From an uncultured Clostridia bacterium (GTDB taxonomy: Bacteria; Bacillota; Limnochordia; Darwinibacteriales; Darwinibacteriaceae), in contig FIZK01000006.1 in NCBI GenBank assembly GCA_900018335.1, positions 5,576-69,575 on the forward strand: a stretch of 64,000 bases of DNA, read 5' to 3'. The notes under the pieces are model-generated. The model saw only the letters and a list, made by a program, of their open reading frames with translations, was not told the origin of the DNA and ran no database searches. Below, piece by piece: positions 6,796 through 64,000 of the stretch (the stretch's first letter is position 1; the number at the start of each line of letters is the position of its first letter). The translations under genes were made by a program, and so were the position numbers.

Positions 6796-8820
6796 TTATT
6801 GATTGAGGAAAGGTATGTTCTGCCACCATGGCTGGGAACAGCGGGGAGAGTATTCCGTTGGTTCCGTCCCAGCGATAAAGATTTCCCTTCTGGTTTCTTC
6901 AGGTGGCAGATTGCAGTTGTCCCGAACCAGCAGACCGGTCTTGGTGTCGATGAGGATGCCTTCCACCAGGCCGCTGGGCTTCGGGAAGTCCCTCACCGGC
7001 GTGTTCTTCAGGGCTTCTTTCATGAAGTTGGCCCAAATCGTAGCCGCATTCCACGACCCGTAGATGACTCCTTGGTAAACCATGCGTTTTGGGGCATCTT
7101 CTCCGAACCAGACGCCCGCCACCAAATCAGGGGTGTAGCCCATGAACCAAGCGTCCTGATAGTCGGAATGCGTACCCGTTTTGCCCGCCGCGGGGCGGCC
7201 AATGTTAGCGTTGCGGCCGGTCCCCCGTTCGATTACTCCGCGGAGCAGATCAGTCATGATGTAACTGGTCGGTTCGCTGAGCACCACTTCATAGCGGGGC
7301 GTATGCTCGTAGAGGACATTGCCCTGGGAGTCGGTTACCCGCCAGATGGCAAAAGGCTCAGACTTGATGCCTTGGTTGGCCAGGACACCGTAGGCCGTTG
7401 CCAGCTCCAGAAGGGATACTCCCCTAGTCATACCGCCCAGCGCCAAGGGGGCCAGGCCAATATCGTTTACCCTTCCTTGTTCCACAAAGGTGGTAATACC
7501 CATCTTTTTGGCATAGTCAATTACAGTTTGCGGTCCTAGTTGATCCACCACTTGGGCAGCTACCACGTTGAGGGAATCTTCCAGGGCTTCCCGCACGGTG
7601 ATGGGCCCGGCAAAGGTTTCGTAGTAGTTGCGCGGGCTCCAGGTCTCCCCAGTGACCAGCTTAAATTCGGTGGGTTCGTCAACGTATACCGTGGCCGGCG
7701 TTATCCCCCTATCGATGGCCGCGGTATAGGCGAACACCTTAATGGCTGAACCTGGAGAACGCAGGGCCTGTACACTGCGGTTGAAGCTGTCTTCGCCCCG
7801 TCCGCCAACCATCACCCGGATCTCACCCGTCTGGGGCACCATGGCCAGCACAGCTCCCTGTGGTTGGGTCAAATCTCCCTCATGGGACCGGTTCACGGGC
7901 AGGCCTTCCAGCAAGGCTTTTTCTGCGGCCTTCTGCATATCCAAATCGAGGGTGGTATATACATGCAGCCCGCCGTTGAAGACCATGTCCTCACCGTACA
8001 TGTCAACGAGTTGGCCTGTCACATAGTCTACGAAGTAACGGGCCTGCACCACCCTGGACTGACGCTCGGCCAGAACCAAGGGCTCGGCTTTGGCTGCCGC
8101 TGCCTCCGCGGCCGTGATGAAGCCCACCTCCTGCATGCGGCTGAGCACGAAATTCCGCCTTTCCACGGCAATATCTGGATTGACGAAAGGCGAGTAGCGG
8201 GTGGGCCAGCGAATTACTCCGGCGATGAGTGCCGCTTCACTCAAGGTCAGATCCTTGGCTGATTTGCCGAAAAACGCCTTTGCTCCTGCTTCTATGCCAT
8301 AGAGACCGTGGTTGAGATAGAACTCGTTTAGGTAAGCCTCTAGAATCTCGTCTTTGGAGTATTTCCGCTCAATCTGCACTGCCCAAAGGAACTCTTCCAG
8401 CTTGCGCATGATGGTCTTCTTTTGGGTTAGAAACACGTTGCGGGCCAGCTGCATGGTGATGGTTCCGCCACCTTGGGCAAAAGACCACTCCTTCAGGTTC
8501 ACTAGGATGGCCCGTCCAAAGGCAATGAAGTTAATACCGTGGTGGTTGTAGAACTGGTCGTCCTCAATGGCGATCACGGCATTTTTTACATGATCGGGCA
8601 GTTCGTTGATGTTCACGGGGATGCGGTTCTGTGTGTATAGATCCGTGATTAATCGTCCGTTGATGTCATAGATGTAAGTAGTGAAGTTCTGGCGGATATT
8701 GACTTGGTCGAGGCTGGGAGCACTGCCCAAATAGGCTGAGACTATCCCTGCAAAGGCGCCCAACAAGGTGGATCCTAGAATTACTAGTATGTATATGGCT
8801 GCGGTCTTTTTTTTCACCAC
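6796..8820 (-). CDS. ponA: class A penicillin-binding protein 1A (transglycosylase/transpeptidase)
   Basis: 674 aa. N-terminal TM, a GT51 motif (EDDQFYNHHGINF; RKLEE), and transpeptidase motifs (SxxK as SAIK, and KTGT). Confidence 0.85.
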   Translation of the reverse strand: MVKKKTAAIYILVILGSTLLGAFAGIVSAYLGSAPSLDQVNIRQNFTTYIYDINGRLITDLYTQNRIPVNINELPDHVKNAVIAIEDDQFYNHHGINFIAFGRAILVNLKEWSFAQGGGTITMQLARNVFLTQKKTIMRKLEEFLWAVQIERKYSKDEILEAYLNEFYLNHGLYGIEAGAKAFFGKSAKDLTLSEAALIAGVIRWPTRYSPFVNPDIAVERRNFVLSRMQEVGFITAAEAAAAKAEPLVLAERQSRVVQARYFVDYVTGQLVDMYGEDMVFNGGLHVYTTLDLDMQKAAEKALLEGLPVNRSHEGDLTQPQGAVLAMVPQTGEIRVMVGGRGEDSFNRSVQALRSPGSAIKVFAYTAAIDRGITPATVYVDEPTEFKLVTGETWSPRNYYETFAGPITVREALEDSLNVVAAQVVDQLGPQTVIDYAKKMGITTFVEQGRVNDIGLAPLALGGMTRGVSLLELATAYGVLANQGIKSEPFAIWRVTDSQGNVLYEHTPRYEVVLSEPTSYIMTDLLRGVIERGTGRNANIGRPAAGKTGTHSDYQDAWFMGYTPDLVAGVWFGEDAPKRMVYQGVIYGSWNAATIWANFMKEALKNTPVRDFPKPSGLVEGILIDTKTGLLVRDNCNLPPEETRREIFIAGTEPTEYSPRCSQPWWQNIPFLNQ

Positions 8821-8936
8821 GACACACCCCCGCGGGATTATTCCAGGACTATTATAACATATATTTTCGCCACTTAATCCCTATCCCCTAGGGGTGCCGC
8901 AGGAAGTTTGCCGGCACTTGAGCGAGGTGAGTGTCC

Positions 8937-55830: not shown

Positions 55831-56083
55831 CTGGTGGGTGTTGTGTCGTGTAGGTAAAAGGGGTTAATTCCCGGTTTCAGCCAATAAAGTATCAGTTCTT
55901 TAGCAGGACAAAGGGCTTCTCGGTCGTATTATACTAAATATCTCGGCTCGACGATTTTGGCAGCTTGAGCTGAAAATCTCATTGAATTTCGTAGGGAAGG
56001 AGTAGTGATATCGCTCAAAGAGGGGAGGTACACCATCAGTCGCTTTTTTTAGAAATCATTAAGAGGGGGAATAGGACAAAACC

Positions 56084-57814
56084 ATGAAGAGACACATTTT
56101 CGTCTGGACGCTGCTTTTGGCACTGGTCGTCAGTGCTGGAGTAGCAAGCGCTGTGGAGTTGTTGGATCCGAGGATTATGAACCTCGAAAGTGACTTTGGC
56201 ATGGTTGTGGGTCAGTACGGCGGTACCATGACCGTTCACGGCGGCGCGAGCGGTCCCAAGACCTTCAACCCGCACCGTGCAGCTGAGACTTCCAGTACCG
56301 ACGTAACCGATCGCCTTTTTGAGGGTCTCGTTACCCTGCACCGCGATTCAGGTTTGGTCATGCCCAAGCTGGCGCGGGACTATGAGATCAGTGAAGATGG
56401 TACCGAAGTAACATTCTATCTGCGCCGCGGAGTGCAGTGGCATGACGGTACTGAGTTCACCGCCGACGACGTCATCTTCACCTTCGACGTAGTCTATGAC
56501 CCGGCAGTGGGCTCCAACTCCAGAACTGGTCTGCTCATCGACGGTCAGCCCATGACCTATGAGAAGATCGACAAGTATACGGTGAAGTTCACCCTGCCTC
56601 GTCCGCATGCTCCAATTATGTTCAGCATCGGAACCCCCATCGTTCCTGTGCATCTGTTAGGTGAGGCTCACAAAGAAGGCCGCTACCACGAGATGTGGGG
56701 TCTGGAGACTCCCCTCGAGGAGATCGTAGGTACCGGTGCCTGGAGGATTTCGTCTTACCGCATCGACCAAGAGCTCATCCTGGTCAGGAACGACAACTAC
56801 TACGAGTTTGACGAAGCTGGCAACCGCCTGCCTTACTTGAACAGGGTTATCTTCCGCTACTATCCAAGCTCGGATACGGCGACCCTGGCGTTCTTCAACG
56901 GTGAGTTTGACTACATCGGCATTCCGGCCAACCAGTATCCTGAGTATGTGGATCGGGAGCCCTTCAGCCGCTGGAGCATCCTCACGGCAGGTCCTAACCC
57001 TGGCACAAGCTTCATCGTGCTGAACCAGAACCCCAACGCTGTGCCTGAGCCCAAGCTGTCCTGGTTCACCGATAAGAACTTCCGTCAGGCCATTGCCCAC
57101 GCAGTGGACAAAGAGACCATCCTCGACATGGCCATGAACGGTATGGGCTACATCCAAGACAGCCCCATCAACATGCGGAACGAGTTCTTCTTGAAGAAGG
57201 ATCTCAAGACCTATCCGTATGATCTGGACGCTGCCCATGAGAAACTGGAAGCTGCCGGCTACAAGCTCGGTGCTGACGGTGTCCGCCGTGACCCGCAGGG
57301 TAACCCCATTGAGTTTGACCTGATCACCAACCCAGGTGTACCCATCAGGCAGATCGTGGGCGAGCTCTTCCAGGAAGACCTTGCGGCTCTGGGCATCAAG
57401 GTGAACTTCTACCAGATCGACTTCAACGTCGTGGTTGAGAAGTTGACCGACACCTTTGAATGGGATGCTATCATCATCGGCCTCACCGGCACCTTCGATC
57501 CTAACGGCGGTTCCAACGTATGGCTCTCCAGCGGTAACCTGCACATGTGGTATCCGTATCAAGAGACGCCAGCCACGGATTGGGAAGCCCGCATTGACGA
57601 AGTCTGGCGCGAAGCTCAAAGAGCTATGGATCCAGAGGTTCGCCGTCAATGGTACTTCGAGTTCCAGGACATCGTAGCTGAGAACGTACCGCTCTTCTAC
57701 ACCGTAACTTCCGAGAATATGGTTGCGGTACGTGATCACCTGATCAACGCTATTCCGGACGGCGTAGGCGGTTCGGTTGGCAGCGCTTGGAACTACATCT
57801 GGATCGACAGGTAG
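56084..57814 (+). CDS. ABC transporter substrate-binding protein, family 5 (oligopeptide/nickel type)
   Basis: Signal peptide MKRHIFVWTLLLALVVSAGVASA; SBP_bac_5 conservation; 576 aa. Confidence 0.85.
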   Translation: MKRHIFVWTLLLALVVSAGVASAVELLDPRIMNLESDFGMVVGQYGGTMTVHGGASGPKTFNPHRAAETSSTDVTDRLFEGLVTLHRDSGLVMPKLARDYEISEDGTEVTFYLRRGVQWHDGTEFTADDVIFTFDVVYDPAVGSNSRTGLLIDGQPMTYEKIDKYTVKFTLPRPHAPIMFSIGTPIVPVHLLGEAHKEGRYHEMWGLETPLEEIVGTGAWRISSYRIDQELILVRNDNYYEFDEAGNRLPYLNRVIFRYYPSSDTATLAFFNGEFDYIGIPANQYPEYVDREPFSRWSILTAGPNPGTSFIVLNQNPNAVPEPKLSWFTDKNFRQAIAHAVDKETILDMAMNGMGYIQDSPINMRNEFFLKKDLKTYPYDLDAAHEKLEAAGYKLGADGVRRDPQGNPIEFDLITNPGVPIRQIVGELFQEDLAALGIKVNFYQIDFNVVVEKLTDTFEWDAIIIGLTGTFDPNGGSNVWLSSGNLHMWYPYQETPATDWEARIDEVWREAQRAMDPEVRRQWYFEFQDIVAENVPLFYTVTSENMVAVRDHLINAIPDGVGGSVGSAWNYIWIDR

Positions 57815-57961: not shown

Positions 57962-58495
57962 CTAGCTGCTTAAGCTGTGGACAAACGTGTTCAGGCGATG
58001 TTTGACGCTGGCATCGAGAACCTTGCCATCCACCTGGATGATCAGCCCACCGCCAATGCCGGGGTCCACCTGGGTGCGCAGGAGCACTTTCTTTCCAGTA
58101 AGCTCGCTCAACTTATGCTGAAGTTGGACCTGCTCTTCCTGACTGAGCTCCAGGGCAGAGGTGACCTGGGCGATGGTGGTATTCTGGTCCTGCAAGACCA
58201 GACGCTCAAAGTCACGGTGCATGAGGGGGAGCAGCCCTTCTCGCCCCTTCTCCACAACCAGGAGGAGAAAGCTTTCCAGCAAATCCGAGAGCCCCATGAG
58301 GCGGACTAGCTCAACTTTGCGCTGCTGAGACGTGCGGGGATGGTAAAAAACCTTGTTGATGACAGGGTCCTGCAAAACAGTCAAGACTCCACTTAACTCT
58401 TTATGCAGTTCCGCGTGCCTTCCCCCTGCGGCCAAAAACAGCGCCTTGGCGTATCGGTTGGCGATCTGGGAATTCCTAGTAGTGTTCATGCTCAT
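57962..58495 (-). CDS. atpH: F0F1 ATP synthase subunit delta (OSCP)
   Basis: 177 aa, OSCP family (IANRYAKALF..., C-terminal GGLIIQVDGKVLDASV); overlaps atpF by 4 nt. Confidence 0.85.
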   Translation of the reverse strand: MSMNTTRNSQIANRYAKALFLAAGGRHAELHKELSGVLTVLQDPVINKVFYHPRTSQQRKVELVRLMGLSDLLESFLLLVVEKGREGLLPLMHRDFERLVLQDQNTTIAQVTSALELSQEEQVQLQHKLSELTGKKVLLRTQVDPGIGGGLIIQVDGKVLDASVKHRLNTFVHSLSS

Positions 58496-58989
58496 TGCAG
58501 ATGTCCTTTGTCCAGGTTATCCAGTTGACTGATGGTATCGGCAATCAGGCGCCGATGCTGCGCTGCATCAAGGGAATCATCGATGACCTTTGCAGCTAGC
58601 TGCACAGACAGCTCGCCCACCTGCTGTTTCAGCTCTGACCAGGCCTTGTCTTTTTCCAGTTGGATTTCCTTCTGAGCTCTGTCCAAAAGGGTCTTGGCCT
58701 CGGCCTTTGCTTCGGCCAGCAGTTTGGCTTGAGCCTGCTCAGCACGCTTAGTGGCTTCGTCGATGATTTGCCGCGCCTGCTGTCGGCTTTCCTGAGCCTG
58801 CTGTTCGAGCTTAAGGCGCAGGGCCTCTGCTGCCTTTTGGTTCTCTTCAGCGGTGCGGATCTGCTTCTCAATCTCAGCCGTGCGCTGATCCATGAAGCTG
58901 CGCACCGGTTTGTACAGCAGCTTGTAGAGGAGCAGCATCAGTAAGATGAAGTTGATGGTCTGAGCCACCAACAGGTTTTGGTCAATCAA
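58492..58989 (-). CDS. atpF: F0F1 ATP synthase subunit b
   Basis: N-terminal TM (TINFILLMLLLYKLL) followed by a long charged helix; 165 aa. Confidence 0.85.
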   Translation of the reverse strand: MIDQNLLVAQTINFILLMLLLYKLLYKPVRSFMDQRTAEIEKQIRTAEENQKAAEALRLKLEQQAQESRQQARQIIDEATKRAEQAQAKLLAEAKAEAKTLLDRAQKEIQLEKDKAWSELKQQVGELSVQLAAKVIDDSLDAAQHRRLIADTISQLDNLDKGHLQ

Positions 58990-59074
58990 CTTCAGTCACC
59001 CTTTGCAGCAAATCTGAACGTAAAAGGGAGGGTGCCTGAAAACGTAATCAGCGTTTTCCAGCACACCCCAGGTT

Positions 59075-60018
<944 letters not shown>

Positions 60019-60029
<11 letters not shown>

Positions 60030-60399
60030 CTTTGATCCTCCCTTGCAGCATGTGGTAGACAATGGCCAGCCTGGGCATGAGCAGTCCAAAAAAGGCAGCC
60101 AAGTAGTTCAAATGGGGACTTGCCGCCGCCGCCCCAAGGGTGGCAGCGTAAAGGGCGCAGCGTTTGAGAAAAGACTTCCTGTTGAAGCGGGATACATCGC
60201 GCTTGGAGAGCCTTACAGTTCGAGCTAGCTGCAGCAGTCGCGTAGCATCGATAATCATCAACCTCAGCGTCAGCACACTCATGAGCCCTCCCAAAAGGAG
60301 GCCCAGTGCCGCCTGCGGCTTAACGACCGCGATTCCTGCCGCCAGCAGGAAGGTGAGGACTGCCGTGGTACGAACAACGTCAACTTCGTTAAACATCAT
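60019..60399 (-). CDS. atpI: ATP synthase protein I (AtpI)
   Basis: 126-aa hydrophobic protein in the canonical position upstream of atpB. Confidence 0.65.
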
Positions 60400-60617
60400 T
60401 TGCGCTCCGAATTGCTGGGCAACGCGTTCACGATGAGCTTATAGGCGCTCCAGATGGAGGTAAAACAGCCAATAAGCAAAAAAACTAAGGTGAATATCGC
60501 CCGTGTCTTGAGCAAGCGGTCGATGTATAGCCCCAAAGCGGTAAAAAGGCCGACACTCACTGCGACGGTCACGCCCACTTGAGTTACCAAAGAAATGTAC
60601 TTCAGGCTATTTTTCAT
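60396..60617 (-). CDS. atpZ: AtpZ/Atp1-like small membrane protein (ATPase_gene1 family)
   Basis: 73-aa protein with two TM helices, overlapping atpI by 4 nt, in the first position of the atp operon as AtpZ is in Bacillus. Confidence 0.5.
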   Translation of the reverse strand: MKNSLKYISLVTQVGVTVAVSVGLFTALGLYIDRLLKTRAIFTLVFLLIGCFTSIWSAYKLIVNALPSNSERK

Positions 60618-60842: not shown

Positions 60843-62174
60843 ATGAAGATTGGAGTCGCGTCTTTAGGTTGTGCCAAGAATCTCGTGGACACCGAGATCG
60901 TACTTGGCTTTTTGGCGGAGTCGGGGCATGAGATTGTCAGCGATCCCCGCGATGCTGAGATTATTATCGTCAACACCTGCGGATTTATCACTGAGGCTAA
61001 AGAAGAGTCCATCCAAGCCATCCTGGAGATGGCGGAGTTCAAGGAATCCGGTTCCTGCCGAGGATTAGTGGTCATGGGGTGCCTGTCCCAGCGCTACGCT
61101 GGGGAGCTGTGGGAAGAGATCCCGGAGATCGATGCCATGCTGGGCACCAACGAGCTAGACTTGGTCCCCGAAGTGATCCAGCGTGTTGCCGGCGGCGAGC
61201 GGGTGTTGGAGAGGCGCAGCAGTTATTTTGATTACAATAAGCCCTATGCCCGGCTGTCCACCACCGGATCCCACTTGGCATACCTGAAGATCGCGGAGGG
61301 CTGTTCCCATCGCTGCGCTTTTTGTGTGATTCCCCACATTAGGGGTGAATACCGCAGCCGCACCATGGAATCCATCTTGCGCGAAGCAGAGACGCTCCAG
61401 CTTTCCGGTGTCAAGGAACTGTGCGTGATCGCGCAAGACAGCACGGCCTATGGGAAGGATCTGGGCACTAGCATTGTGGAGCTGCTGCAACGGCTGGCGG
61501 GGTTGGAGATTCCTTGGATTCGCCTGCTCTATACCTATCCCACGTCCATTAGCGATGATCTGCTGGATCTCATGGCCAGGGAACAGAATTTGGTGAAGTA
61601 CGTCGATTTGCCCCTGCAGCACGTTTCCCAGAGCGTTCTCCGGCGCATGAAGAGGCCGGGTGGTTTCGACTCAACGAAGGCGTTGATCGAGAAAATCCGC
61701 GACCGTATCCCCGGGGTAGTTATCCGCAGTTCATTCATTGTTGGTTTTCCAGGTGAAACCGAGGAGGATTTTCAGGAACTGCTGAGGTTTTTGGACACCA
61801 TGCGCCTGGATCATGTGGGGATCTTCAGATATTCCCGGGAAGAAAACTCAGCCGCGTATCATTATGAGGGGCAGGTGGACGAGGAAATAAAAGAACGACG
61901 TTACCATGAGGCCATGGCGGTGCAGCAGCAGGTGTCCGCTTCCCTCAATAGGAAGCTGGTGGGGAGGAAGATGAAGGTTCTTCTGGAATATCCATCTGAG
62001 GAATCGGATTTGGTGATGGTAGGTAGACACAGCGGGCAAGCTCCGGATGTGGATGGTGTGGTTTACTTAGGCAGAGATGCTCTGCAGCCCGGAGAACTGG
62101 TTACGGTGCGCATCACGGAAGCCCATGCCTATGACTTAGTTGGAGAGGTGGTGGAGGGCAGTGAACCTGCCTAA
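60843..62174 (+). CDS. rimO: ribosomal protein S12 methylthiotransferase RimO (radical SAM MTTase)
   Basis: N-terminal MTTase domain (MKIGVASLGCAKN...VNTCGF), radical-SAM CSHRCAFC and a C-terminal TRAM domain; 443 aa; followed by pgsA as with Bacillus yqeV. Confidence 0.8.
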   Translation: MKIGVASLGCAKNLVDTEIVLGFLAESGHEIVSDPRDAEIIIVNTCGFITEAKEESIQAILEMAEFKESGSCRGLVVMGCLSQRYAGELWEEIPEIDAMLGTNELDLVPEVIQRVAGGERVLERRSSYFDYNKPYARLSTTGSHLAYLKIAEGCSHRCAFCVIPHIRGEYRSRTMESILREAETLQLSGVKELCVIAQDSTAYGKDLGTSIVELLQRLAGLEIPWIRLLYTYPTSISDDLLDLMAREQNLVKYVDLPLQHVSQSVLRRMKRPGGFDSTKALIEKIRDRIPGVVIRSSFIVGFPGETEEDFQELLRFLDTMRLDHVGIFRYSREENSAAYHYEGQVDEEIKERRYHEAMAVQQQVSASLNRKLVGRKMKVLLEYPSEESDLVMVGRHSGQAPDVDGVVYLGRDALQPGELVTVRITEAHAYDLVGEVVEGSEPA

Positions 62175-62682
62175 CTTGGTTACTTCGCTCCGCATTTTGC
62201 TTGTGCCGCTGTTTGTGTACCTGTATCTGACCAATCCGGGGCAGATGAACCTCCCAGCAGCCTTTGTGTTTTTGCTGGCGTCCGTCACTGACGCCCTGGA
62301 TGGATATCTAGCCCGCAGTCGTAAGGAGGTCACCCGCTTTGGGCAGCTCATTGACCCCATCGCGGACAAACTCCTCATCACCGCGGCTCTGCTCACTTTG
62401 GTCCAGGCCGGGTCCATAAACACGTGGGAGGCCTTAATCATCCTAGGACGGGAGTTTGCCGTTTCGGGCTTGAGGATCTTAGCTGCGGCGGAGGGGAAGG
62501 TAATCGCGGCTTCGTTGTGGGGGAAGATCAAGACGGTTACTCAAATCGCAGCAGTTATGGCGTTTTTCCTGGGCATTTCCTGGGCTCGCCAGCTCATGTG
62601 GGTGGCCATTGTGGCTACCGTGTTGTCGGGCGTTAGGTACTTCCAGAAGGCCCAGGATGTACTAAAAAGCTCGATGGAATAG
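62161..62682 (+). CDS. pgsA: CDP-diacylglycerol--glycerol-3-phosphate 3-phosphatidyltransferase
   Basis: NLPNLVTSLRI N-terminus and CDP-alcohol phosphotransferase motif DALDGYLAR...G...DPIADK. GTG 62161 follows a GGAGG Shine-Dalgarno; the ORF as listed opens at 62140. Confidence 0.85.
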   Translation: MNLPNLVTSLRILLVPLFVYLYLTNPGQMNLPAAFVFLLASVTDALDGYLARSRKEVTRFGQLIDPIADKLLITAALLTLVQAGSINTWEALIILGREFAVSGLRILAAAEGKVIAASLWGKIKTVTQIAAVMAFFLGISWARQLMWVAIVATVLSGVRYFQKAQDVLKSSME

Positions 62683-62698
62683 TGTGTTATAATACTTA

Positions 62699-62730
62699 GT
62701 GTCAGCAATCAACGCTGACACTTTTTTTGT
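62699..62730 (+). terminator. rho-independent terminator after pgsA
   Basis: GTGTCAGC-aatcaac-GCTGACAC perfect 8-bp stem followed by TTTTTTTGTTTG. Confidence 0.75.
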
Positions 62731-62760
62731 TTGCAAGAATATGGGCGGGAGGAAGTACCC

Positions 62761-63327
62761 TTGAATTATCGCGGCTTTCATCTGCCGGCAGCCTTTCTGG
62801 TTTTTATCCTGGTAATTGCTGGCGGTTTGTTGGGAAAACATGTATACGAACGGACTCAGGTGATGACTCCGCTGGAGGCCAGGCTTGAGGAGGCGTCCGG
62901 CGTACAGAGAGTGGTCTTCCAGCGCGGACCTGGAGGGAAAACCGTGGTCTATCTCGAGCTGGATCCAGCGGTCACGCTGTCCTCGGCGTTTAGCCAGGTG
63001 CGGGAAATCGCAGCCAGTTCCAGGGCAGACTTGGCCATCTACGTGGTGGACTCGGCCAGCCAGGAGCTGTTGCACTTGTTTGAGCGGGTGAGGATCGCCG
63101 CGGAAGAGGCCATCATTACCGGCCAGTTCACCCTGCTGGAGGAGCGGGTTAGGGATCTGGCATTGGCGCAGGGGGTAACTTGGGAGCTCTCTGTGGATCG
63201 AGATTACATCTATGTGTCGCTGGCCGATGGTGAAAGTGTTTTGCGGCGGGTGATCAGCCGCGCTCCCCATGGGGGCGATCTGGAAGTGTATGCGGGAGGA
63301 GGTGCTGCGCCGTGGAGAAATGGGTGA
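62761..63327 (+). CDS. hypothetical membrane-anchored protein (N-terminal TM plus soluble domain), translationally coupled to the downstream FtsH-like gene
   Basis: TTG 62761 sits 5 nt after GGGAGGAAG; TM segment LPAAFLVFILVIAGGLL; no recognisable motifs. Its stop TGA overlaps the GTG start of the next gene (GTGA). Confidence 0.45.
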   Translation: MNYRGFHLPAAFLVFILVIAGGLLGKHVYERTQVMTPLEARLEEASGVQRVVFQRGPGGKTVVYLELDPAVTLSSAFSQVREIAASSRADLAIYVVDSASQELLHLFERVRIAAEEAIITGQFTLLEERVRDLALAQGVTWELSVDRDYIYVSLADGESVLRRVISRAPHGGDLEVYAGGGAAPWRNG

Positions 63328-64000
63328 AGGAGATCGCCCTGGGCGGCGCGGTGGCCGCGTTGGTTTTAGCTGTGATCTTTGGGTTTGACCTAAGCCTACT
63401 CTTGTTTCCCTTGAGCATGCTGGCTTTGGGCGCCATGTTCATCAGCGGACGTGGTGGACTCGCCGGGCGTTTCAGTCCCGCCCGCCTGGGGGGTGGGGAA
63501 GAGAGCACGGTTCCTGCGGTCACCTTTTCCCAGGTTGGGGGCCAGGAAATGGCGAAGAGAGAACTTTTGGAAGCGCTTACTTTTCTGAAGGAGAGCTCTC
63601 GCACAAGGCAGCTGGGGATTCGGCCCCTGAAGGGCGTTCTCCTTGTGGGGCCGCCAGGAACGGGCAAGACGCTCATGGCCAAAGCGGCTGCCAATTACAC
63701 CGCATCCGTCTTTTTGGCCGCTTCAGGTTCACAGTTCGTACAGATGTACGCCGGGGTGGGTGCCAGCCGGGTACGTCAGCTTTTCAAGGAGGCCCGTACA
63801 CAGGCACAACGGGCGAAGAAGGCCAGTGCCATTATCTTCATCGATGAGATCGACGTCTTAGGGCCAAAACGGGGGAAGAACGTCAGCCATCTGGAGTATG
63901 ACCAAACCTTGAATGAGCTGCTTACCCAAATGGATGGAGTAGACAGTGAACAAGACGTCCAGATCCTGGTGGTGGGCGCGACCAATCGTGCCGACCTGCT
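63324..64000 (+). CDS. FtsH-like AAA+ ATPase (3' end outside the window); two N-terminal TM helices with almost no extracytoplasmic domain
   Basis: TM1/TM2 within the first 45 aa, then an FtsH-type AAA module: VTFSQVGGQEMAKRELLEALTFLK, Walker A GPPGTGKT, FVQMYAGVGASRVRQLF, Walker B IIFIDEID and sensor-1 VVGATNRADLL. Open to the window end. Confidence 0.7.
   Translation, partial: MKEIALGGAVAALVLAVIFGFDLSLLLFPLSMLALGAMFISGRGGLAGRFSPARLGGGEESTVPAVTFSQVGGQEMAKRELLEALTFLKESSRTRQLGIRPLKGVLLVGPPGTGKTLMAKAAANYTASVFLAASGSQFVQMYAGVGASRVRQLFKEARTQAQRAKKASAIIFIDEIDVLGPKRGKNVSHLEYDQTLNELLTQMDGVDSEQDVQILVVGATNRADL

Follow-up and report, generated by a model that had tools for sequence, protein, structure and literature searches.

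FtsH is a universal membrane-anchored AAA+ protease, and both the role of its periplasmic domain and the route by which membrane substrates reach its pore are debated. In canonical FtsH (MEROPS M41; TIGR01241; PF06480 together with PF00004 and PF01434), represented by the enzymes of T. maritima, T. thermophilus, and E. coli and used here as the reference, an extracytoplasmic domain of ∼70–100 aa lies between two N-terminal transmembrane (TM) helices. Here we analyzed a 64,000-nt stretch of DNA from an uncultured Clostridia bacterium (contig FIZK01000006.1 of assembly GCA_900018335.1, positions 5,576 to 69,575; hereafter the window). At its 3′ end, a gene for an FtsH-family protease in which this domain is reduced to a loop of ∼3 residues (the short FtsH) overlaps an upstream gene for a small membrane-anchored protein (the partner).

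The closest functional analogy for the mechanism we propose is the FtsH-HflK/HflC system. HflK and HflC are bitopic, N-terminally anchored proteins with large extracytoplasmic domains which modulate the access of membrane substrates to FtsH, and HflKC contacts the FtsH periplasmic domain. This contacted domain is missing from the short FtsH. The partner, at ∼180 aa, is much smaller than HflK/HflC, and none of 53 members of its family matches the Band_7/SPFH domain (PF01145), though an N-terminal anchor is present. Unlike the genes of HflK/HflC, the partner gene lies in front of the protease gene and overlaps it.

Several proteins illustrate that the AAA+/M41 core tolerates loss or replacement of the N-terminal ectodomain. 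The mitochondrial i-AAA protease Yme1 has one TM helix. In our searches, two FtsH homologs of Thermoleophilia (L033, Baekduia sp.; L034, Gaiellaceae) were found to lack a periplasmic domain and to contain just one hydrophobic segment, with Walker A at residue 97–136 and a total length of 510–561 aa, which looks like an independent loss of the ectodomain. A third case, the metagenomic locus L103, is described below. None of these proteins has a two-helix hairpin or a partner gene.

Within the Firmicutes, an uncharacterized FtsH paralog restricted to this phylum, FtsH(P2), has been proposed to be a sporulation protease (Garcia et al. 2021, Mol Biol Evol, PMC8136486). FtsH(P2) may be the same family as the short FtsH. 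The text of that paper mentions neither a missing ectodomain nor an upstream partner, and the suggested role in sporulation is not supported by the promoter evidence for the short FtsH operon. Our literature searches turned up no report of an FtsH that lacks the ectodomain and comes with a dedicated partner encoded upstream.

A catalytically complete FtsH-family protease without an ectodomain

The window ends within the protease gene, whose sequence we extended with a contig of assembly GCA_040364275.1 (‘Candidatus Darwinibacter acetoxidans’; 100% identity over 1401 nt). This uncultured organism lives in anaerobic digesters, belongs to the MBA03/DTU010 group of Bacillota, and has ∼59% G+C; its nearest cultured relative is Anoxybacter fermentans (PMC12663870). 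Positions on this 312-kb contig (L001) are converted to window positions by adding 52760. The gene pair has the following features.

62748–62752, + strand: Shine-Dalgarno sequence GGAGG of the partner gene, 8 nt 5′ of TTG 62761
62761 (TTG)–63327 (TGA), + strand: partner gene, 188 aa, exact copy in public assemblies
63295–63302, + strand: Shine-Dalgarno sequence GGAGGAGG of the FtsH-type gene, within the 3′ end of the partner gene and 9 nt before GTG 63312
63312–64000, + strand, cut by the window end: gene of the ectodomain-less FtsH-family AAA+/M41 protease, full product 500 aa (L001 10552–12054)
63333–63386, + strand: protease TM1, residues 8–25
63396–63443, + strand: protease TM2, residues 29–44
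63648–63671, + strand: Walker A, GPPGTGKT
63744–63755, + strand: pore loop, MYAG
63831–63854, + strand: Walker B, IIFIDEID
Past the window end: second region of homology (SRH), AAA_lid_3, and M41 domain with H340-E-V-G-H344 and D415

The 500-aa product has AAA, AAA_lid_3, and Peptidase_M41 domain matches. PF00004 (AAA) matches with 133 bits, GPPGTGKT corresponding to residues 113–120 and the Walker B DE to residues 178–179, and PF01434 (M41) matches with 113 bits, spanning just profile positions 2–115 of 191. Residues 54–496 align with solved FtsH cytoplasmic regions, the alignment to T. thermophilus FtsH reaching residue 496, and the protein carries an EEIIFG...NDIEQA segment. In an alignment of 10 sequences (A4), Walker A and B, the SRH arginines (TNR...RPGRFDR), HExxH, E401/E402, and Asp415 are invariant. 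Judged by its motifs, the protease is thus a catalytically complete AAA+/M41 enzyme. A first-pass annotation of the window, made from its letters alone, had left open whether an M41 domain follows and had proposed to extend the sequence. The extension revealed the HEVGH protease domain past the window end, and with this domain present and its catalytic residues invariant in A4, the suggestion of a bare ‘unfoldase’ does not hold. The same annotation had described two N-terminal TM helices only a few residues apart and no periplasmic domain. This we confirm, as the helices are joined by the loop D26-L27-S28, with a linker and the AAA module behind them, and the protein has no FtsH_ext match.

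FtsH_ext (PF06480) was matched by none of four short FtsH family members. Their scores against TIGR01241 were 452 (window protein), 476, 475, and 446 bits, all below the cut-off of 600, and since relatives of the short FtsH fall under this cut-off, they are labeled ‘AAA family ATPase’ by PGAP. The best 120 relatives of the protease are almost all 490–515 aa long and 55–100% identical to it, and stem from Bacillota (Limnochordia, Clostridia, Anoxybacter). The hairpin itself is conserved: among 109 distinct N-termini, E7 is found in 85%, G11 in 96%, G24 in 88%, and P29 in 92%.

As controls, we used 77 FtsH loci among the matches listed in a genome scan with an FtsH alignment, nearly all of them of standard length. 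The short and the canonical FtsH share Walker A and B, the SRH, an aromatic pore loop, the lid, HExxH with the Asp ligand, and two N-terminal TM helices. In contrast to the short FtsH with its 500 aa, almost all control proteins have at least 606 aa, and Walker A, at 99–123 residues from the start in almost every short form (residue 113 in the window protein), is at least 193 residues away from it in nearly all controls. The pore loop reads MYAG instead of the canonical MFVG, a signature EYDQTLN replaces the canonical segment, and the catalytic region is 39–45% identical to that of most controls, rising to 55% in three of the 80 loci listed. Moreover, the short FtsH is always preceded by the partner gene, whereas the canonical controls are not. 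By sequence criteria, the short FtsH therefore misses two defining features of the FtsH equivalog, i.e., the ectodomain and the curated score, and forms a branch of its own, rich in members, within the FtsH family. A search of the 64-kb window revealed no second FtsH gene, and among PADLOC models the protease matches only generic AAA entries (IetA, TRIP13), the partner none.

The partner gene directly precedes the short FtsH gene

A partner-family member lies directly upstream of the short FtsH gene in 11 of 11 lineages examined, with matches of the partner hidden Markov model (HMM) at L001, L005–L012, and L090–L092. Starting from the protease, we found the upstream partner in Anoxybacter fermentans, two Limnochordia-type contigs, a Clostridia metagenome-assembled genome (MAG), a Bacillota MAG, Alicyclobacillus acidiphilus, and a Thermosediminibacteraceae MAG (HMM E-values 1e-35 to 1e-52). 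Conversely, starting from the partner, a short FtsH gene was found directly downstream in all five lineages looked up (the window locus and four relatives).

For a broader survey, metagenome contigs were scanned with a DNA pattern encoding EYDQTLN[EQ][LF], the signature of the short branch, yielding 119 loci, 89 of which have room upstream. The partner was directly upstream in 87 of these 89, and both exceptions (L103 and L162) are not TM-hairpin forms. By comparison, a partner-family open reading frame (ORF) was found within 4 kb of none of the 77 control FtsH loci. The first-pass annotation had suggested a dedicated membrane partner for a minimal FtsH, and a conserved one is indeed present, with both genes on one strand and in unchanged order throughout the lineages examined. 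That annotation had also named the finding that would speak against it, a standard full-length FtsH behind a poorly conserved ORF; what we find is a 500-aa protein without ectodomain, scoring 452 against 600 bits, behind a well conserved ORF.

The two exceptions differ from each other. L103 (1975–4170) encodes a ∼720-aa metagenome protein with an EYDQTLN-type AAA+M41 core and a soluble N-domain of ∼290 aa without obvious TM helix, has no upstream partner, and is possibly a cytosolic offshoot of the short-FtsH branch. With its EYDQTLN core and neither hairpin nor partner, it fits a link between partner and hairpin, as a single case. L162 (1–2823) holds an ORF of actinobacterial type, longer than 940 aa, in which three tandem AAA modules are followed by M41 with HEAGH, and was caught solely through EYDQTLNQL in its last AAA module.

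The pair lies most often between (rimO-)pgsA and cinA-recA: cinA follows it in 36 of 64 loci, and pgsA precedes it in 19 of 65. Other contexts include a tig-clpP-clpX-lonB/lonA cluster (L005), a position downstream of rsgA-rpe (L009), and the Alicyclobacillus locus L011. In the neighborhood survey of the loci, no third gene was consistently found beside the pair.

The partner represents a family of its own

The partner had been noted as a 188-aa, membrane-anchored ORF after the pgsA terminator with no recognizable motifs, a description that stands: the protein has a single TM helix, at its N-terminus, and matches neither Pfam nor NCBIfam models. It consists of a short basic N-terminus, a TM helix at about residues 8–25 (nt 62782–62835), a helical stalk up to residue 44, and an acidic α/β domain of ∼125 residues with the order β-β-α-β-α-α-β-β-β. 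An AlphaFold (AF2) model from a 53-sequence alignment (predicted local distance difference test score, pLDDT, 90.8; predicted TM-score, pTM, 0.81) opens with a 37-residue helix that comprises TM helix and stalk. The soluble domain has a net charge of −5 and is almost free of Cys. The flank N-terminal of the TM helix carries a net charge of +1.4 (plus the amino terminus) compared to +0.57 for the C-terminal flank, from which, by the charge-difference rule, we infer an N-in/C-out (type II) topology with the globular domain outside the cell membrane.

An exhaustive profile search retrieved 617 partner-family clusters (50% identity) at E≤1e-3, of which 231 reached E≤1e-10, compared to just four clusters in a word-based search. 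Members are typically ∼165–200 aa long among the matches listed, and length and fold are retained across the family. All named members are ‘hypothetical proteins’ of Bacillota, including A0A0K2SKP8 of Limnochorda pilosa and proteins of Moorellaceae. Scans with Pfam, NCBIfam, and PADLOC models gave no match for the partner or the 53 family members, and as judged from these sequences the partner belongs to no described family. It is also the less conserved of the two proteins: among sister species it is 48–59% identical, compared to 74–82% for the protease, and the mean column identity of the family alignments is 30% for the partner and 66% for the short FtsH.

Structural likenesses are weak. 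In a profile search of the PDB, only the periplasmic porter subdomains of RND pumps came up, with a weak match when hits were summed (MdtB; summed E = 2e-4); this faint likeness agrees with the topology given above. Foldseek hits of the first subdomain were likewise weak (probability 0.85–0.99, TM-scores ∼0.3). Behind the TM helix, this subdomain shows the pattern of helix, ‘GV’, β-hairpin, and helix that is also seen in RND porter subdomains and in the α-β-β-α-β modules of CDF C-terminal or EscJ type. We also considered homology of the partner to FtsH_ext. Alignment by hhalign of the partner alignment (A3) with the N-terminal regions of 48 standard-length FtsH proteins gave a probability of 22% over 31 columns, which is not significant, so that the idea was dropped and is kept as a functional analogy only. 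Apparent fusions of partner and FtsH with long N-termini proved to be open-frame artefacts of start-codon assignment.

Partner and protease genes overlap by 16 nt

The first-pass annotation had placed the start of the protease at a GTGA coupling site. This GTGA is present at 63324–63327 but is not the start; the sister species and the Shine-Dalgarno sequence point to GTG 63312. At the position of 63312, three sister species have ATG, TTG, and TTG and thus keep a start codon, whereas at the position of 63324 they have GTA, GCG, and TTA; GTG 63312 was also picked by the gene callers in all four identical assemblies. Based on these sister-species codons, the gene-caller choice, and the Shine-Dalgarno sequence at 63295–63302, we assign the start to GTG 63312, which gives an overlap of 16 nt between the two genes. 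In one sister species, where the partner gene stops earlier, the overlap is only 4 nt.

In the metagenome loci, the partner stop and Walker A are a median of 319 nt apart (5–95% range: 299–354; 320 in the window), a narrow distribution indicating that the genes overlap or abut with a gap of a few nt nearly everywhere. Given the 16-nt overlap and the Shine-Dalgarno sequence inside the partner gene, translation of partner and protease is probably coupled.

A conserved extended −10 element precedes the partner gene

The features upstream of the partner gene are as follows.

60843–62174, + strand: rimO (TIGR01125, 518 bits, cut-off 357)
62161–62682, + strand: pgsA, CDP-diacylglycerol--glycerol-3-phosphate 3-phosphatidyltransferase (TIGR00560, 162 bits, cut-off 109; PF01066)
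62685–62693, + strand: extended −10 element TGTTATAAT (TGnTATAAT) of the partner-ftsH operon, conserved family-wide, with no recognizable −35 box
62698–62729, + strand: intrinsic terminator of pgsA, with a 9-bp stem and 7-nt loop (62698–62722) followed by U7 (62723–62729)

The 5′ end of pgsA overlaps rimO, and its stop codon is TAG 62680–62682. An extended −10 just before the terminator hairpin had been reported at 62684–62692; the element is real and conserved, its coordinates are off by one, and the correct position is 62685–62693. Perfect TGNTATAAT occurs twice in the 64-kb window compared to 0.45 expected occurrences. The other copy (8851–8859, − strand) falls just inside the stop-to-stop frame of a 694-aa ORF on the minus strand (6799–8880), at its 5′ end, and is probably the promoter of this ORF if its true start codon is further in.

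Across the family, a perfect TGnTATAAT is found at most 200 nt upstream of the partner gene in 48 of 76 metagenome loci (63%), compared to 0.85% of control windows, and the relaxed motif TGnTA[TC][AG][AC]T in 69 of the 76 (91%), with a median distance of 45 nt from the −10 to the start codon. Reading of eight independent lineages by eye revealed a TATAAT-type −10 in all eight and the TGn extension in seven. The CATA-type −10 of sigma E/K/G and the sigma F consensus, as established for B. subtilis, do not fit TGnTATAAT. This promoter sequence points to transcription of the partner-ftsH operon by the housekeeping sigma factor (sigma-A type) and not by a sporulation sigma factor.

The placement of the −10 before a terminator, called odd in the first-pass annotation, is likewise real and conserved, yet limited to the Darwinibacterales and a few other lineages. 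In four Darwinibacterales species, a block of the form TGTGTTATAAT-N4-stem-loop-stem-U7 is almost invariant: −10, stem, and U-tract do not vary, whereas the loop and the sequence past the U-tract do. A similar order is seen in L007. The stem begins 4 nt past the −10, and the 56-nt stretch with the hairpin has a minimum free energy (MFE) of −16.9 kcal/mol (z = −3.1). With the usual spacing of 6–7 nt between −10 and +1, transcription is predicted to start at ∼62698–62701, on the 5′ foot of the stem, and the pgsA terminator hairpin would therefore double as a 5′-terminal stem-loop of the partner-ftsH mRNA. In Firmicutes, a 5′-terminal stem-loop stabilizes mRNA against 5′-end-dependent decay.

A hairpin right after the −10 is not a family-wide feature, as the mean MFE does not fall below that of controls, and must be regarded as lineage-specific. 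A known riboswitch or leader was also excluded, since an Rfam scan of 62500–63400 matched no family. In Anoxybacter fermentans (L006, 5290–5449), a terminator-like hairpin and its U-run come ∼27 nt after TGCTATAAT, with a further 60 nt between the hairpin and the partner Shine-Dalgarno sequence and fragments of an insertion sequence (rve) just upstream; this hairpin may act as a leader or attenuator, or be what is left of a terminator.

A proposed two-subunit membrane protease

Taking pairing, overlap, and promoter together, we favor as fairly probable that the two genes encode an obligate two-subunit, membrane-bound, ATP-dependent zinc protease in which the partner supplies the sole extracytoplasmic domain. 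The operon would be active in growing cells, as its own strong sigma-A-type extended −10 promoter suggests, and in Darwinibacterales the pgsA terminator hairpin would form the very start of the transcript. The partner would be made from the same mRNA in a fixed proportion to the protease. The short FtsH, as the large subunit, would form the ATP-driven unfolding and degradation chamber beneath the membrane, its N-terminus being a tight TM hairpin whose ∼3-residue loop lies outside the membrane. The TM helix of the partner might pack on this conserved hairpin (E7, G11, G24, P29), so that its acidic α/β domain would be the only extracytoplasmic part of the complex. There, by analogy with the periplasmic domain and HflKC, it may stabilize the ring and/or gate or select membrane-protein substrates.

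Some points weigh against such a protease. The physical complex is something we infer from sequence, as are its substrates and the role of the ectodomain; the topology of the partner rests on a modest charge difference, with K+R counts alone being ambiguous; and the single-TM short FtsH proteins of Thermoleophilia (L033, L034) have no partner-family gene nearby, so that loss of the ectodomain alone needs no partner. The same co-location and co-transcription would equally be expected if the partner were not a structural subunit and instead a dedicated regulator or sacrificial substrate, i.e., an inhibitor or a degradation-controlled signal transducer. Here, a cue sensed by the outer domain would trigger degradation of the partner and release protease activity, resembling anti-sigma factors or the relationships of YccA and SpoVM with FtsH. 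The far faster evolution of the partner, seen in both the sister-species and the column identities, would suit this role, and its short cytoplasmic N-terminus, which is conserved and basic, could be the tag at which degradation is initiated. However, no sigma or transcription factor is conserved beside the pair, and the near-universal overlap or abutment of the genes suggests production in fixed proportion and not regulated antagonism. We regard a regulator or substrate as the main rival, though an unlikely one.

A sporulation-associated adaptor with an FtsH-like machine in the mother cell or forespore membrane, a possibility raised in the first-pass annotation, has gained no positive evidence and appears quite improbable. 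The nameable hosts (Limnochorda pilosa, Alicyclobacillus acidiphilus, Anoxybacter fermentans, Moorellaceae) are putative spore-formers, all presumably from spore-forming lineages. This argument is confounded with phylogeny, as deep Bacillota are mostly spore-formers. The EscJ-type Foldseek likeness of the first partner subdomain recalls SpoIIIAG/AH, although it is not significant, and the distribution of FtsH(P2), which may be the present family, tracks SpoIID (PMC8136486). In contrast, the conserved −10 is of sigma-A type in 69 of 76 loci and not of sigma E/F/G/K type, a CATA-type −10 of sigma E/K/G was seen in none of the eight lineages read by eye, and no sporulation gene is a conserved neighbor. 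Finally, the rimO-pgsA ... cinA-recA backbone common to many loci might suggest that the adjacency is inherited synteny, with an unrelated small membrane ORF caught between pgsA and the protease gene. This we consider scarcely credible, as the pair persists without the backbone (L005, L009, L011), pgsA is upstream in far fewer loci (19 of 65) than the partner (87 of 89), and the genes overlap.

Within the favored two-subunit protease, a more specific and tentative model, doubtful in its details, is a ‘split FtsH’ in which both proteins would form a 6:6 assembly through packing of their TM helices, and a separate ectodomain polypeptide, from a fold family not described before, would control the extraction and degradation of membrane proteins in much of Bacillota. 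This would be a new architecture of AAA+ membrane proteases and a natural system that separates the roles of ectodomain and motor. The module is a naturally occurring form of FtsH whose ectodomain has been deleted, and with this enzyme a dedicated bitopic protein is co-inherited in hundreds of lineages. In public databases, the two are labeled only ‘hypothetical protein’ and ‘AAA family ATPase’. If the complex exists, it would offer a clean test of what the FtsH ectodomain does, define a new protein family, and allow a common gene pair of Bacillota to be annotated correctly, also in abundant anaerobic-digester organisms. The conserved near-consensus extended −10 could moreover be a useful marker promoter for uncultured Bacillota.

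Neighboring genes

Two further observations concern the surroundings of the pair. The ATP synthase genes atpZ, atpI, atpB, atpE, atpF, and atpH lie together at 57962–60617 (− strand). The cluster ends at atpH (delta/OSCP, 57962–58495), next to a gene for an ABC peptide-binding protein (SBP_bac_5, 56075–57811, + strand). As atpA, atpG, atpD, and atpC are not adjacent, the atp operon appears to be split, a layout common to the sister species. Beyond the window end, ∼3 kb downstream (L001 13097–14068, − strand), a conserved 323-aa ORF without Pfam or NCBIfam match sits between a DUF212 gene and cinA; this ORF, DUF441, and DUF212 make up a lineage-specific insert that separates the protease gene from cinA and was found in 4 of 64 loci.

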